Source: a virus
Lineage: Duplodnaviria > Heunggongvirae > Uroviricota > Caudoviricetes
DNA length: 15,118 nucleotides
Virus record (IMG/VR): IMGVR_UViG_2740892439_000020
Location: 1 to 15,118 of that record
Reading direction: 5' to 3' (one strand)
Shown here: in pieces, positions 1,295 through 10,228 of the stretch
Layout of the letters: the number at the start of each line of letters is the position of its first letter
Position numbering within the stretch: the stretch's first letter is position 1
Position numbers and translations under genes: made by a program
Notes under the pieces: generated by a model
The model's input: only the letters and a program-made list of their open reading frames with translations
Databases searched by the model: none
What the model was told of the DNA's origin: nothing

Positions 1295-2065
1295 TTATAG
1301 CTCCTTTAATCGAGGCGGTTCTGGTAGAGGCATCCAGTGGGTTACCTCTTTGAGATACAGGTCTTCGCCATCACCGTCATCCCAAGTTGGATTGCCATCA
1401 TTAAACCAGTCGCCATATACGCCGACCTGAGTGTTGGGGATGTTTGGTGGGTAGTTGTTTTTAAAGTCAGCTGCTAACACATAGCATTGTCGCTCTCCCA
1501 TTTCTGGCATTCGCTCACTACAGCTTATCCAACCATCCGGAGTTACCGGAGAATTGCCAGACAGCTCGTTCAACTTGTAAGTTTGGCTTACAGGTTCGGC
1601 TTCCAGTTCTGCAATGCGCTTCTCTGCGGCTTCCAGCTTCTCGCGCATATCATCAACGTACTCGACCAGAGATCCGCCAGCAGGAATTTCGCACTCCTCG
1701 ACCAGTTGGAAGTAGATATCAGCTGCGGACCGTGTGTTGCTATGCCTAGCGTCGCCCATCTCACCTTCACGAAGAGCATCGCGTTCTGCGGTAAGATTGG
1801 CTATTTTGCTGTCTTTGCCTTCCAGCTCAACACGCAGTTTCCCTACCGTTAGCGCAATATCCTCGTTCTCCTGATCGCGGAGTTTGATGTATTGCTGGTT
1901 TCTTTCCCGTTCATCCAACAATGCCAGCGCGATATCTGGCGAAAAGTGCTTCATAAAATCGTTAAGCGCATTAATTCGCTGATCGAAAGGCATTACAGGT
2001 GCTTCACCAGCAATTTTTGTTTTTTCAGCGATTTCACGAAGCTTTTGATAATCAATCTTGCTCAC
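1295..2065 (-). CDS. Ead/Ea22-like protein with predicted coiled-coil middle and C-terminal DUF551-like domain
   Basis: 256-aa ORF, GTG start at 2063-2065; central heptad-like charged region (LEAAEKRIAELEAE); C-terminal W...RMPE...VTHWMPLPEPP signature typical of DUF551. Confidence 0.55.
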   Translation of the reverse strand: MSKIDYQKLREIAEKTKIAGEAPVMPFDQRINALNDFMKHFSPDIALALLDERERNQQYIKLRDQENEDIALTVGKLRVELEGKDSKIANLTAERDALREGEMGDARHSNTRSAADIYFQLVEECEIPAGGSLVEYVDDMREKLEAAEKRIAELEAEPVSQTYKLNELSGNSPVTPDGWISCSERMPEMGERQCYVLAADFKNNYPPNIPNTQVGVYGDWFNDGNPTWDDGDGEDLYLKEVTHWMPLPEPPRLKEL

Positions 2066-5912: not shown

Positions 5913-6212
5913 TCAAATAAGTGGTTTACTGCCTAATTTCATTTTCTGGCGACCAACACAAGTCACACCCATTTCACTGCGTGGCTTGCGGTAGTAAATA
6001 CGATTCTGTTTACGCTCGATTTCTTCTGCCTTCTTGCAGCGAAGGCTTCCGAGTGATGCTGCTTTGTCTGCTCTGACGCAACCAGAGAGCTTTAGCGCAA
6101 TTTTTCGCGCCAGTGCTTCATTACTGCGTCGCTCGGCAATAAGTTCTGCTCTGCGAGCTTTGTAGCGGCTTTTTGCCGTACCTTTGGATTCTTTCCAGAC
6201 AATGGTTACCAT
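5913..6212 (-). CDS. N: antitermination protein N (phi21-type arginine-rich motif)
   Basis: ATG 6210-6212 with AAAGGAG 6 nt upstream (track ORF starts at 6242 without an RBS); N-terminal ARM GTAKSRYKARRAELIAERR as I recall for phage 21 N; first gene downstream of pL/nutL. Confidence 0.7.
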   Translation of the reverse strand: MVTIVWKESKGTAKSRYKARRAELIAERRSNEALARKIALKLSGCVRADKAASLGSLRCKKAEEIERKQNRIYYRKPRSEMGVTCVGRQKMKLGSKPLI

Positions 6213-6322
6213 GATGGTCTCCTTTAAGTGGCTTTGGCGCATGACGCGTCGAGGTGCTTATCTTCTCGATCGCTGTCTTGCAGCTGCAATTCGCGCCATC
6301 CCCAAAACCACTCAAGTTCTGG

Positions 6323-6500: not shown

Positions 6501-6528
6501 GGAAATAAAAAAGGGGCGAAAGCCCTTA
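6501..6528 (-). terminator. putative terminator immediately after the repressor gene
   Basis: minus-strand GGGC-UUUC-GCCC hairpin followed by CUUUUUUAUUU, starting at the repressor stop codon. Confidence 0.4.
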
Positions 6529-7176
6529 AGGAAGGTTTGCTAGCTTGGCATCAACGACAACGCCAATGATTTTACAGTTCCCATTGATTTCAATCATTGG
6601 GTATTGTGGATTGAGTGGTTTCAGGAATTTTCTACCGGCATCAATAACTAACTTTTTGAATGTCGCCTCGTTTTCTCCTTCAAGTTTGGCGACTACCAGC
6701 TTTCCATTACGTGGTTCGACTTCTGGGTCGACGAGAATAATCATCCCCTCAGGAATACTCAGTCCTGCCGGGGCAGTCATTGAATCGCCTTTAACGTCGA
6801 GCCAAAAAGAGTCTTCAGAACAATCTACCGTTGTGTCGTACCAGTTATCTATTGCACGCCTATGATATGGCTCTACAGCTTCCATCCAACATCCTGCGCT
6901 TACCCAACTAATTAGAGGATATGAACCTCTTGGATCATGCCTGCTGTGATAGGCAATGTTTGAAAGACTATCCTCTCCTTTCAACAGGTAATCAGGGGAG
7001 CACTGCAAAGCCTTGGCTAAGGCCAATAGGTTTTCGCCATTGGGCTCAGTTTCAGATCGCTCCCATTGGGAAATAGCAACATTAGACACGCCAACCATCT
7101 TGCCAAGGGCAGCCTGCCTAATCTTGAGTTCTTTTCTGCGAGCGCGAATACGCTCACCCATCAGTTGTGTATTCAT
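6526..7176 (-). CDS. c2: prophage repressor, C2/CI type (N-terminal HTH, C-terminal LexA-like S24 self-cleaving domain), P22 C2-like
   Basis: 216 aa; N-terminal domain (MNTQLMGERIRARR..QAALGKMVGVSNVAISQWERSE) matches my recollection of the P22 C2 DNA-binding domain; C-terminal Ser-Lys peptidase region (GDSMTAPAG...KLVVAKL...TFKKL); divergent from cro across an operator region. Confidence 0.85.
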   Translation of the reverse strand: MNTQLMGERIRARRKELKIRQAALGKMVGVSNVAISQWERSETEPNGENLLALAKALQCSPDYLLKGEDSLSNIAYHSRHDPRGSYPLISWVSAGCWMEAVEPYHRRAIDNWYDTTVDCSEDSFWLDVKGDSMTAPAGLSIPEGMIILVDPEVEPRNGKLVVAKLEGENEATFKKLVIDAGRKFLKPLNPQYPMIEINGNCKIIGVVVDAKLANLP

Positions 7177-7256: not shown

Positions 7257-7442
7257 ATGTACAAAAAAGATGTTATTGACCACTTCGGAACCCAGCGTGC
7301 TGTTGCTAAAGCACTAGGCATTAGCGATGCAGCAGTCTCTCAGTGGAAAGAAGTTATCCCAGAGAAAGACGCCTATCGATTGGAAATCGTTACAGCTGGC
7401 GCCCTGAAGTATCAAGAAAGTGCTTACCGCCAAGCGGCATAA
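7257..7442 (+). CDS. cro: Cro repressor (P22 Cro-like)
   Basis: 61 aa; GGAG RBS; HTH QRAVAKALGISDAAVSQW; sequence matches my recollection of P22 Cro; divergent from repressor. Confidence 0.85.
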   Translation: MYKKDVIDHFGTQRAVAKALGISDAAVSQWKEVIPEKDAYRLEIVTAGALKYQESAYRQAA

Positions 7443-7557: not shown

Positions 7558-7854
7558 ATGGCACAAGCAAGCTACAGCAAGCCAACACAGCGAGAAATTG
7601 ATCGCGCTGAAACTGATTTACTCATCAACCTGTCAACGCTTACCCAGCGCGGTCTGGCAAAGATGATTGGCTGTCATGAATCGAAGATAAGCAGAACGGA
7701 CTGGAGGTTTATTGCTTCGGTCTTGTGTGCTTTCGGAATGGCATCAGACATCAGTCCGATTAGCAGGGCTTTTAAGTATGCGCTTGATGAAATCACAAAG
7801 AAAAAATCCCCGGCCGCCACCGAGGATTTTAAGCAAATTGATATGCAATTCTGA
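7558..7854 (+). CDS. cII: CII-family transcriptional activator
   Basis: 98 aa; HTH region and C-terminal KKKSPAATEDFKQIDMQF resemble lambda CII (NKKRPAATERSEQIQMEF); follows cro and nutR. Confidence 0.75.
   Translation: MAQASYSKPTQREIDRAETDLLINLSTLTQRGLAKMIGCHESKISRTDWRFIASVLCAFGMASDISPISRAFKYALDEITKKKSPAATEDFKQIDMQF
7567..7580 (-). promoter_or_regulatory. candidate CII-binding site of pRE (TTGC-N6-TTGC direct repeat)
   Basis: minus strand reads TTGCTGTAGCTTGC inside the 5' end of the cII-like gene, the position and form of the lambda pRE activator site. Confidence 0.45.
7797..7826 (-). terminator. oop-type antisense terminator within the 3' end of the cII-like gene
   Basis: minus-strand hairpin (7807-7826) followed by AUUUUUUCUUUG; same location as the lambda oop RNA terminator. 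Confidence 0.45.
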
Positions 7855-7886
7855 GGGAATTACTGGATCAATCCACAGGAGTAATT

Positions 7887-8048
7887 ATGACAAAACGTCG
7901 TAAGAAATACCAGGAAAAAGAAGAGATTCGACACCCTGATTCACCTGAGGGATTAGTGGTAGCCGCAGCAAATAACAGGGCGTTCGCAGAGCGCCTTGTT
8001 GGTGTTTACAGACTAGCCAAAGCAGGAGTGAAACATGGGCGTCGTTAA
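7887..8048 (+). CDS. small basic protein (53 aa, [53 protein letters not shown])
   Basis: not in ORF track; ATG 7887-7889 with AGGAG 6 nt upstream; ends 14 nt inside the O-like gene. Confidence 0.45.
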   Translation: MTKRRKKYQEKEEIRHPDSPEGLVVAAANNRAFAERLVGVYRLAKAGVKHGRR

Positions 8049-8796
8049 GTTAGCTGATTACAGGCCTCAACTGGAGGTCGTGGAGCATCGCGTGGCAGAT
8101 ACCGAAGATGGTTTCATGCGCGTTGCTAACGAGATTACCGACAGTCTGCTGATGGCTGATTTAACCGTCCGGCAGTTGAAGGTGATGCTCGCTATCATGC
8201 GCAAGACATACGGATTCAATAAGCCGATGGATCGACTCACAAACACGCAGATAGCAGCCATGACAGGTATTCATCACACTCATGTTTGCGCTGCCAAGCG
8301 CCAGCTTATCGAGCGTAAATTCCTCATTGCTGATGGCGTGAAAATCGGAGTGAACAAGGTGGTTTCTCAGTGGATTAGCCAGGACAGCTTAACATTAGCT
8401 AAAACAGCTAATAAAACATTAGCCGAGTCGGCTAATGGGTATAAGCCAAGTCAGCTAAACACAAAAGACAATATACAAAAGACAATAAATACAAATACCC
8501 CCTTACCCCCTAACGGGGGCGGCGATTGGCAGGTTAAACCTGAACGTCGCAAGGCAGAACGAATCGACTACGAATCCTTCCTGAACGCCTACAACGCCGA
8601 AGTCGGTGACAGACTTCCACACGCTGTTGCGGTCAACGAGAAACGCAAACGCCGCCTGAAGAAAATCATCCCGCAACTGAAAACGCCAAACGTGGACGGT
8701 TTCAGAGCGTATGTCAGGGCGTTTGTGCATCAGCCAAGCCGTTTTACTTCGGAGACAACGACACTGGCTGGACGGCAGATTTTGATTACCTGCTGA
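8035..8796 (+). CDS. O: replication initiation protein, lambda O-like N-terminal domain (possibly 3'-frameshifted, see findings)
   Basis: 253 aa as read; AGGAG RBS; N-terminal region [37 protein letters not shown] resembles lambda O (DLTKRQFKVLLAILRKTYGWNKPMDRITDSQ); iterons inside the gene. Confidence 0.8.
8394..8500. repeat. candidate replication origin: ATTAGC/GCTAAT iteron-like palindromes followed by an AT-rich tract
   Basis: palindromes ATTAGCT-AAAAC-AGCTAAT (8394-8412) and ATTAGCCGA-G-TCGGCTAAT (8418-8436), a degenerate third copy near 8441-8458, then AT-rich 8459-8500; inside the O-like coding region as for ori-lambda. Confidence 0.5.
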
Positions 8797-8851: not shown

Positions 8852-10228
8852 ATGAGACAGGATATCGAAGCGAGCGTTATCGGTGGCCTGCTGATTGGTG
8901 GATTAACACCAACTGCCAGTGACGTTCTGGCAACGCTTGAGCCGGAAGCGTTTTCAATTCCGCTCTACCGGAAAGCCTTCGAGGTTATCCGCAAGCAGGC
9001 GAGAAACAGAAACCTAATCGACGCGCTGATGGTTGCCGAGGCGTGCGGAGAGGAGCATTTCACGTCAATCCTGATGACCAGCAAAAACTGCCCGAGCGCC
9101 GCAAACCTGAAGGGATATGCCGGAATGGTCGCGGATAACTATCACCGCCGTCTGGTGCTGGAAATCATGGATGAAATGCGTGAACCAATTCAGAGCGGAA
9201 CCATCGATACATCGAGTCAGGCGATGGACGAGCTTGTAAAGCGTCTTTCAGCCATCAGAAAGCCCCGTGACGAGGTTAAACCTGTACGGTTAGGGGAAAT
9301 CATCACTGACTACACTGACACGCTTGACAGGCGTCTGAGGAACGGAGAAGAGTCAGATACCCTGAAGACCGGAATCGAAGAACTTGATGTCATCACCGGA
9401 GGGATGAACGCGGAAGACCTGGTGATAATCGCTGCCCGTCCTGGCATGGGGAAAACCGAACTGGCGCTGAAGATTGCCGAAGGCGTTGCAAGCCGCGTTA
9501 TTCCTGGTTCTGACGTCCGGCGCGGAGTATTGATTTTCTCAATGGAAATGAGCGCATTGCAGATTGCAGAGCGAAGCATTGCCAACGCCGGGAGGATGTC
9601 GGTTAGCGTACTGCGAAATCCTGCATCGATGGATGACGAAGGCTGGGCGCGTGTTGCTAACGGCATGAGTCAGCTTGCAGATTTGGATGTATGGGTAGTC
9701 GATGCCTCGCGGTTATCGGTCGAAGAAATACGCTCAATCGCAGAACGACACAAACAGGAAAATCCAAACCTGTCACTCATCATGGCGGATTATCTTGGCC
9801 TGATTGAGAAGCCGAAAGCAGACCGCAACGACCTCGCAATTGCTCACATCTCCGGAAGCCTGAAGGCGATGGCGAAAGACCTGAAAACGCCTGTTATCTC
9901 CCTAAGTCAGCTTTCGCGCGATGTTGAGAAGCGACCAAACAAACGCCCGACAAACGCAGATTTGCGTGATTCAGGAAGCATTGAGCAGGACGCAGACTCA
10001 ATCATCATGCTCTATCGGGAAGCGGTATATGACGAGAACAGTAGCGCCGCGCCATTTGCTGAAATCATCGTGACGAAAAACCGTTTTGGCTCGCTTGGTA
10101 CGGTTTACCAGCGGTTCTGTAACGGACATTTTGTTGCATGTGACCAGGATGAAGCCAGACAGATTTGCACAGCATCAAATGCACCCGCTGCACGTGGCAG
10201 ACGATATGCACAAGGGGCTGACGTATGA
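8852..10228 (+). CDS. DnaB-family replicative DNA helicase (P22 gene 12-like, replaces lambda P)
   Basis: 458 aa; DnaB N-terminal domain; Walker [13 protein letters not shown]; Walker B and RecA-fold motifs ([18 protein letters not shown]); follows the O-like gene. Confidence 0.9.

Follow-up and report, generated by a model that had tools for sequence, protein, structure and literature searches.

The stretch of DNA analyzed here, referred to as the window (15,118 nucleotides), is the early region of a mosaic lambdoid phage or prophage. Between its cII-like gene and its O-like replication initiator gene it very probably carries two adjacent and partly interleaved elements of a lambdoid early-right operon, namely a pO-oop-tO antisense RNA cassette of the lambda kind and a real protein gene of the HK97 gp53 family. 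The oop cassette and the gp53 gene are both already known in lambdoid phages, from public annotation and from the work of Hayes et al. (2012; PMC3349717). To these, sequence comparison adds two small points: codons 8–11 of the small gene are synonymously invariant at the predicted -35 of pO, and gp53 and the opening nine codons of the initiator gene move together, in combination with at least three initiator types that differ in their N-terminal domains. The genes of the region are as follows.

6526..7176, minus strand: P22-c2-type repressor
7257..7442: cro
7558..7854, plus strand: cII-like transcriptional activator gene of the HK97 cII type (Pfam Phage_CII, E=2.7e-33; phrog_191)
7887..8048, plus strand: small gene of 53 aa, HK97 gp53 family (phrog_1331)
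8035..8796, plus strand: O-like replication initiator of the HK97 gp54/P22 gp18 type (Pfam Phage_rep_O, E=4.7e-33)
8852..10228: DnaB-type helicase

The DNA of positions 7558-8100 was found to be 98.3% identical to that of HK97 and 97% identical to that of several Stx2 phages, in whose records the three genes are named cII, gp53 or ‘hypothetical protein’, and O. The immunity region to the left of gp53, however, is of the P22-c2 type in the window and of the HK97 type in HK97, a difference that represents ordinary lambdoid mosaicism. A 109-aa ORF with an arginine-rich stretch (KSRYKARRAELIAERR) occupies, on the minus strand to the left of the repressor (5913..6242), the position of an N-type antiterminator. 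For tests of conservation, approximately 240 related loci were gathered from viral contigs and phage records. The best 80 loci of the first scan were all 100% identical in protein and uninformative for dN/dS, and two further scans used divergent members as seeds for that purpose.

The elements of the antisense RNA that overlap the end of the cII-like gene are the following.

7803..7830, minus strand: tO intrinsic terminator hairpin, with a stem of 12 bp (5 of them G-C) and a 4-nt GGCG loop, identified by consensus scan
7833..7876, minus strand: 5' stem-loop of the oop-like RNA, present in both the RNAfold MFE and centroid structures
7797..7876, minus strand: predicted oop-like antisense RNA of ~80 nt, by homology to lambda oop

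A hairpin with a U-tract on the minus strand at 7797-7826, within the 3' end of cII, had been reported in a preliminary description of this DNA. Such a structure is present and lies inside the last 58 nt of the cII-like ORF, whose TGA stop codon is at 7852-7854, but the reported coordinates miss the outer 4 bp of the stem, which runs from 7830 to 7803. The stem is followed by TTCTTTGTGA, with the U-run at 7802-7797 of the minus strand. Terminator-like sites are not enriched in the region as a whole (6 against 3.0 ± 1.9 in shuffled sequences) and, this count being unremarkable, the case for a terminator rests on homology and conservation. The tO site itself is not a product of chance, as is indicated by its fold energy, its alignment with lambda oop and its conservation with covariation.

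Conservation of the terminator was assessed with an energy-based finder, which called a hairpin of -8 kcal/mol or better that is followed by a T-tail and has its end 60-106 nt away from the ATG of the small ORF. With this approach a minus-strand hairpin and T-tail were identified in 132 of the 135 distinct contexts upstream of the small ORF, represented by 61 different hairpin sequences, and the mean energy of the hairpins was -18 kcal/mol. Among the controls, 42 of 405 shuffled sequences and one of 135 plus strands were positive. A hairpin is also present in the three contexts that failed, with an interrupted T-run. The energy-based finder was used in place of a stricter one, which misses bulged stems and called 94 of the 135 contexts. 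Across 16 terminators of the lambda/HK97 type, 94% of the cells are paired, compared to 40-57% when the partner strand is slid, and compensatory changes affecting both sides are found at five of the 12 stem pairs; the window, for instance, has UC..GA where lambda has CG..CG. As a result of these changes to the stem, cII differs in its final residues (RPAATER in lambda, SPAATED in the window), and these have been reported to be dispensable for activity (PMC3349717).

The pO-oop-tO segment of the window shares its position and strand with that of lambda, being antisense to the 3' end of cII, at ~75% identity. The window RNA is identical to the 77-nt lambda oop at 58 of 80 aligned columns. The alignment with lambda is colinear from the 3' end of cII through GGATC.ATC.ACAGGAGT.ATTATGACAAA before similarity stops at 7894/7895, and the lambda oop RNA is the complement of the block shared with the window. 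An 82-nt minus-strand RNA was predicted to fold at -30.4 kcal/mol, in comparison to -17.8 ± 3.2 kcal/mol for shuffled sequences (z = -3.9; none of 200 as good), and the window RNA and lambda oop both fold into a 5' hairpin followed by the terminator hairpin, with a z of -3.9 each. The 5' hairpin of lambda lies at the place that matches 7833..7876 of the window, although the window RNA, as predicted from its sequence, pairs there in a shifted register. The two RNAs are also of similar size (~80 and 77 nt) and overlap cII to a similar extent (58 nt in the window, with the stop codon included, and 55 nt in lambda). By these comparisons of sequence, fold and covariation, the hairpin is a homolog of the lambda oop terminator, as had been proposed. 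The presumed origin of the RNA in the spacer that separates cII from its right-hand neighbor is also in agreement with lambda homology and with a -10 hexamer common to both phages; the predicted 5' end is near the G at 7876 (7873-7876) and the predicted 3' end is in the U-run near 7797-7800.

The records of related phages support this identification. In that of HK629 the homologous stretch is labeled ‘similar to coliphage lambda oop RNA’, that of P22 marks an ‘oop terminator’ and an ‘oop promoter’ at the homologous sites, and in that of Sf6 the block is labeled as boundary sequence bsq5. An oop RNA has been observed by RNA-seq in P22-infected cells, as 63-nt reads with a 5' end equivalent to position 7873 of the window (PMC13397905), and has been detected in the transcriptome of the BTP1 prophage (PMC7067206). 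Searches of Rfam at gathering and permissive thresholds returned only chance sub-threshold matches on the window hairpin; the oop region of lambda itself gave no match either, Rfam having no oop model, and the null result on the window is thus uninformative.

We infer the production of the RNA in the window, and the manner of its action, from lambda. A sigma-70 promoter pO on the minus strand (-10 at 7889..7884 and -35 at 7912..7907, the latter in codons 7-9 of the small ORF) would start an RNA of ~80 nt near 7876, which would stop at the hairpin and U-run of 7830..7797. Its complementarity would extend over the final 58 nt of cII and the spacer beyond it, as far as 1 nt from the Shine-Dalgarno sequence of gp53. 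By pairing with the pR transcript over 7797-7876 it would direct cleavage by RNase III, lower CII and favor lysis. In lambda, oop is reported to lower CII by way of RNase III, which cuts the cII-O transcript (Krinke and Wulff, 1987). Convergent firing of pO may also damp transcription from pR into the origin, and transcriptional interference between pO and pR has been documented in lambda (PMC3985674).

To the right of this RNA, the small ORF begins with an ATG at 7887 and ends with a stop codon at 8046-8048. Two signals on the plus strand are associated with it.

7877-7881, plus strand: Shine-Dalgarno sequence AGGAG of the small ORF, 5 nt before its ATG and the same as the ribosome binding site of lambda gene O
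8024..8048, plus strand: coupling junction, with the initiator Shine-Dalgarno sequence AGGAG (8024-8028), the initiator ATG (8035) and the 14-nt overlap ATGGGCGTCGTTAA of the two genes

The preliminary description of this ORF, as one of 53 basic-rich residues with an AGGAG ribosome binding site and a 14-nt overlap with the start of the O-like gene, is correct in its coordinates. It was mistaken, however, in regarding the ORF as unlisted, as this is gene 53 of HK97, annotated since the HK97 genome record and now in approximately 100 phage records (among them those of HK97, Sf6, ES18, HK629 and HK75). The product matches phrog_1331 over residues 1-53 of 53 (E=1.4e-37) and is 100% identical to HK97 gp53, Sf6 gp42 and many ‘hypothetical proteins’, with ES18 gp58 being of the same family. 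The gene itself shows no difference from that of HK97, where it likewise has cII on its left and the initiator, overlapping by 14 nt, on its right. Homologs with identities ranging from 62 to 98% are found in phages and prophages of Escherichia, Salmonella, Shigella, Cronobacter, Enterobacter, Citrobacter, Lelliottia and Erwinia.

The ORF has been conserved in related phages as a protein-coding sequence. It is intact in all 222 loci recovered, which comprise 85 distinct DNAs and 52 distinct proteins of 52-55 aa, and the differences in length are small and of whole codons only. Synonymous differences greatly exceed nonsynonymous ones (pS ~0.65, pN ~0.16), giving a dN/dS of ~0.13 where it could be estimated, synonymous sites being saturated. 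The numbers of variable columns at the first, second and third codon positions are 37, 31 and 54, and in most of the sequences the five alternative reading frames are interrupted by stop codons. Purifying selection is strong at residues 20-48, where synonymous sites vary freely. Synonymous variation is low at alignment codons 49-57, which corresponds to the initiator's own Shine-Dalgarno sequence and start. Judged by these patterns of substitution, 7887..8048 is a real protein gene. Translation had been argued for earlier from the strength of the ribosome binding site. That conclusion is borne out by marks of a translated gene such as the low dN/dS and a Shine-Dalgarno core that 45 of 47 distinct leaders retain in spite of their differences. 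The ribosome binding site alone is a weaker argument, since it and the ATG are those of lambda gene O, inherited with the boundary sequence, and it is the evolutionary evidence that carries the claim.

No relatives of gp53 were found in Pfam, in a PDB sequence search or with Foldseek against viral models. A profile search of 1.84 billion representative proteins returned 24 proteins, all of them small members of the gp53 family, and did not connect it to any larger family; a literature search for ‘HK97 gp53’ returned only unrelated gp53 proteins. In the AlphaFold2 model, which is of moderate confidence (mean pLDDT of 68), residues 1-20 are unstructured and residues 21-29 and 31-49 form helices. 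As modeled, ~30 helical residues follow a basic and disordered tail at the N terminus.

Some indication of the role of gp53 comes from its neighbors. The same gp53 protein occurs 3' of activators of the lambda, HK97 and P22-c1 types. The initiators 3' of gp53, on the other hand, all start with MGVVKLADY(R), after which there are at least three different N-terminal domains, one of them Phage_rep_O and the others, the HK629 type and a type found in loci L233 and L007, having no Pfam match. This start is encoded by the first 30 nt of the initiator gene, at 8035-8064 in the window and likewise in loci L002, L005, L007, L091, L233 and others. Codons 7-10 of the initiator vary synonymously, which indicates that the MGVVKLADY leader is conserved as a peptide. 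A common start followed by diverse domains points to a mosaic joint ~30 nt inside the initiator gene, with gp53 and the leader moving as a unit. By its associations, gp53 is thus linked to its right-hand neighbor, the initiator, and not to cII on its left. An accessory factor of the replication-initiation module would be, at most, a tentative guess at its role, made from position alone; lambda has no gp53, and P22 has a non-homologous ORF in its place.

A role for gp53 as a modulator of the lysis-lysogeny choice and not as a replication factor, acting for example on CII stability or on oop/pO, appears improbable. The protein is small and helical in its AlphaFold2 model, would be translated, like cII, from the early pR message, and its gene adjoins cII and contains pO; in spite of this, it segregates with the initiator and not with cII, following activators of three types with 61 different terminators, while a constant association is seen between its 3' end and codons 1-9 of the initiator.

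In the preferred reading, that of a translated protein gene, gp53 would use the ribosome binding site and ATG that serve gene O in lambda, would be translated from the pR transcript and, by ending 14 nt inside the initiator gene, would be translationally coupled to it. Of 220 loci, 218 retain the 14-nt overlap ATGGGCGTCGTTAA. This degree of conservation, together with a start region that is the start of lambda gene O and the fact that lambda needs no such protein, would also suit an ORF that is a translated leader only, in which ribosomes are handed from the lambda-O-type start to the initiator by termination and reinitiation and the peptide has no function. Such a role is nonetheless unlikely from the sequence data, as a separate AGGAG precedes the initiator ATG by 6 nt, the peptide is under strong purifying selection at residues 20-48 with synonymous sites free, and the length changes are all small and in frame. 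A programmed +1 frameshift fusing gp53 to the initiator, which lies in the +1 frame, was also considered and rejected; the sequence ...CGT CGT TAA contains no slippery site, and the initiator is provided with a Shine-Dalgarno sequence and ATG of its own.

The putative promoter of the oop-like RNA overlaps the start of gp53 and consists of the following elements.

7889..7884, minus strand: pO -10 hexamer CATAAT, identical to that of lambda at the homologous position
7892-7891, minus strand: upstream TG of pO (extended -10)
7907..7912, minus strand: predicted pO -35 TGGTAT, 17 nt upstream of the -10 and inside codons 7-9 of the small ORF
7908..7919: 12-nt block TACCAGGAAAAA, codons Y8, Q9, E10 and K11 of the small ORF, without synonymous variation

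Read on the plus strand, the -10 hexamer is ATTATG and includes the ATG of the small ORF, and the earlier statement that this ORF is antisense to the oop promoter therefore holds. In lambda, the same hexamer, with the same TG, also lies over the start codon of the next rightward gene, which is O in lambda and the small ORF in the window. The P22 record assigns its oop promoter to a hexamer identical with the -10 of the window. The sequence to the right of position -19 has been replaced relative to lambda, such that the window has a -35 of TGGTAT within gp53 in comparison to TTGAGT within gene O. The predicted -35 matches the consensus at two of six positions and pO was not called by a consensus scan, and activity of pO in the window would rely on the TG-extended -10.

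A number of observations from other loci bear on this -35. In P22 the annotated -35 of pO, TGGTCA, sits at the position of that of the window despite an unrelated ORF. At least 62 of 74 distinct promoter segments keep TGGTAN followed after 17 nt by the -10, the variants of which at this spacing are CATAAT, TAAAAT, TAGAAT and CATACT. In some loci the -10 hexamer is 3 nt further from the ATG and the ORF is one codon shorter, with the 17-nt spacing unchanged. Loci in which the peptide differs here (MARKRRFFKREEE) have TTGAAA-17-CATTAT at the position of pO. Lastly, codons 8-11 of gp53 have an entropy of 0 in 66-80 of the 85 distinct sequences, compared to 0.8-1.0 for flanking two-fold codons, and this frozen block (7908-7919) falls on the predicted -35 and on 7 nt adjoining its upstream side. 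The position in P22, the kept spacing, the TTGAAA variants and the frozen codons are together suggestive of a genuine -35, though the synonymous invariance could stem from another constraint on the DNA or RNA, for example a feature of the mRNA or the CCAGG site of Dcm.

It might alternatively be proposed that pO is dead following replacement of its -35, that no oop RNA is made, and that the hairpin has been kept for another role, as a stabilizer of 3' ends or a weak bidirectional terminator of rightward cII transcripts. The poor match of TGGTAT to the consensus, the failure of the scan to call a promoter and a short T-run after the hairpin on the plus strand too are compatible with this. The direct RNA evidence comes entirely from phages of the orf48 type, and P22 and BTP1, in which oop RNA has been seen, have at the gp53 site an unrelated ORF, orf48, with the better -35 TGGTCA. 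We regard a dead pO as very unlikely given that the -10 and TG motif are identical to those of lambda, the 17-nt spacing to TGGTA holds when the -10 moves, synonymous sites are frozen at the -35, the terminator geometry is found on the minus strand in 132 of 135 contexts against one of 135 on the plus strand, and the 5' hairpin of the RNA has also been kept.

The end of similarity to lambda at 7894/7895 corresponds to position -19 of pO and separates its -10 from its -35. The same joint inside pO occurs in a lambda/P22 hybrid (Hayes et al., 2012; PMC3349717), which suggests that the -19 position is a recurrent site of recombination. As lambda homology ends 8 nt after the ATG and the protein has no Pfam, PDB or structural relatives, the small ORF could be thought a chance by-product of a mosaic joint between the start signals of lambda O and the leader of a P22-gene-18-type initiator, but as far as sequence analysis goes this is refuted by its intactness in 222 of 222 loci from phages of Escherichia, Salmonella, Shigella, Cronobacter, Enterobacter, Citrobacter and Erwinia, by the excess of pS (~0.65) over pN (~0.16) and by the stop codons in the other frames of most sequences.

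A more specific and doubtful proposal within the preferred reading is that gp53 is a dedicated small regulator of replication initiation. The -35 of pO, gp53 and initiator codons 1-9 (MGVVKLADY) would then form a cassette compatible with three or more kinds of origin-binding domain, with codons 8-11 of gp53 serving a dual purpose, encoding protein and providing the -35 of the convergent promoter of oop. Were this the case, expression of gp53 and of the initiator would be mechanically tied to the synthesis of oop.

The layout of cII, oop, a small ORF, O and P has been described previously, with homologs of gp53 named (Hayes et al., 2012; PMC3349717). The window represents a further instance of this layout, as found in Sf6, with the conserved block GGATCAATCCACAGGAGTAATTATGACAAA present and a lambda-type joint at position -19 of pO, and no difference from it was found. 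In P22 the corresponding place is occupied by orf48, which is similarly a small basic ORF (48 aa) with its ribosome binding site and ATG in the common boundary sequence, contains the -35 of pO and overlaps the start of the initiator gene 18. It has no detectable homology to gp53 (hhalign probability of 0.05, E=0.83) and is thus a positional analog only. The overlap with the initiator is 8 nt in P22 compared to 14 nt in the window, and the P22 initiator begins with MSNLATV as opposed to MGVVKLADY. The ‘orf48’ of Silas et al. follows a numbering of its own and is irrelevant to orf48 of P22.

Annotation of this DNA should include a minus-strand oop RNA gene (pO, oop, tO) at 7797-7912 and should give the 53-aa ORF the name of an HK97 gp53-family protein. 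Many lambdoid phages, those encoding Shiga toxin included, have gp53 as a strongly conserved early gene product, which is coupled, as predicted above, to the replication initiator. If gp53 were to tune replication or the lysis-lysogeny choice, this would bear on the induction of toxin phages.

The O-like gene of the window is 98.4% identical to gene O of HK97, with one G missing near 8732-8733 (CATCAGGCC becoming CATCA-GCC). This 1-nt deletion shifts the frame, giving an initiator of 253 aa compared to 273 aa and leaving a gap of 55 nt before the helicase gene in place of an ATGA overlap; it represents either a defective prophage initiator or a sequencing error. The replication origin lies inside the gene at 8374-8500. 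It is comprised of four 18-nt palindromic iterons (ATTAGCnnnnnnnGCTAA) with a spacing of 20-24 nt (8374-8458), followed by an A/T-rich stretch with a 14-nt tandem repeat (8461-8488). The two ‘terminator-like’ matches that the scan placed at 8437..8405 are these iterons and not terminators.

In the genome record of BTP1 (LT714109) the gap of 173 nt between the cII-like gene and O is unannotated. It contains an ORF (30566..30712) identical to orf48 of P22, with the same ribosome binding site and boundary sequence. In the RefSeq record of P22 (NC_002371) orf48, at 1850..1996, is named ‘tail protein’. This is probably a propagated mis-annotation, such a function being implausible for a 48-aa ORF of the early operon located between oop and gene 18.
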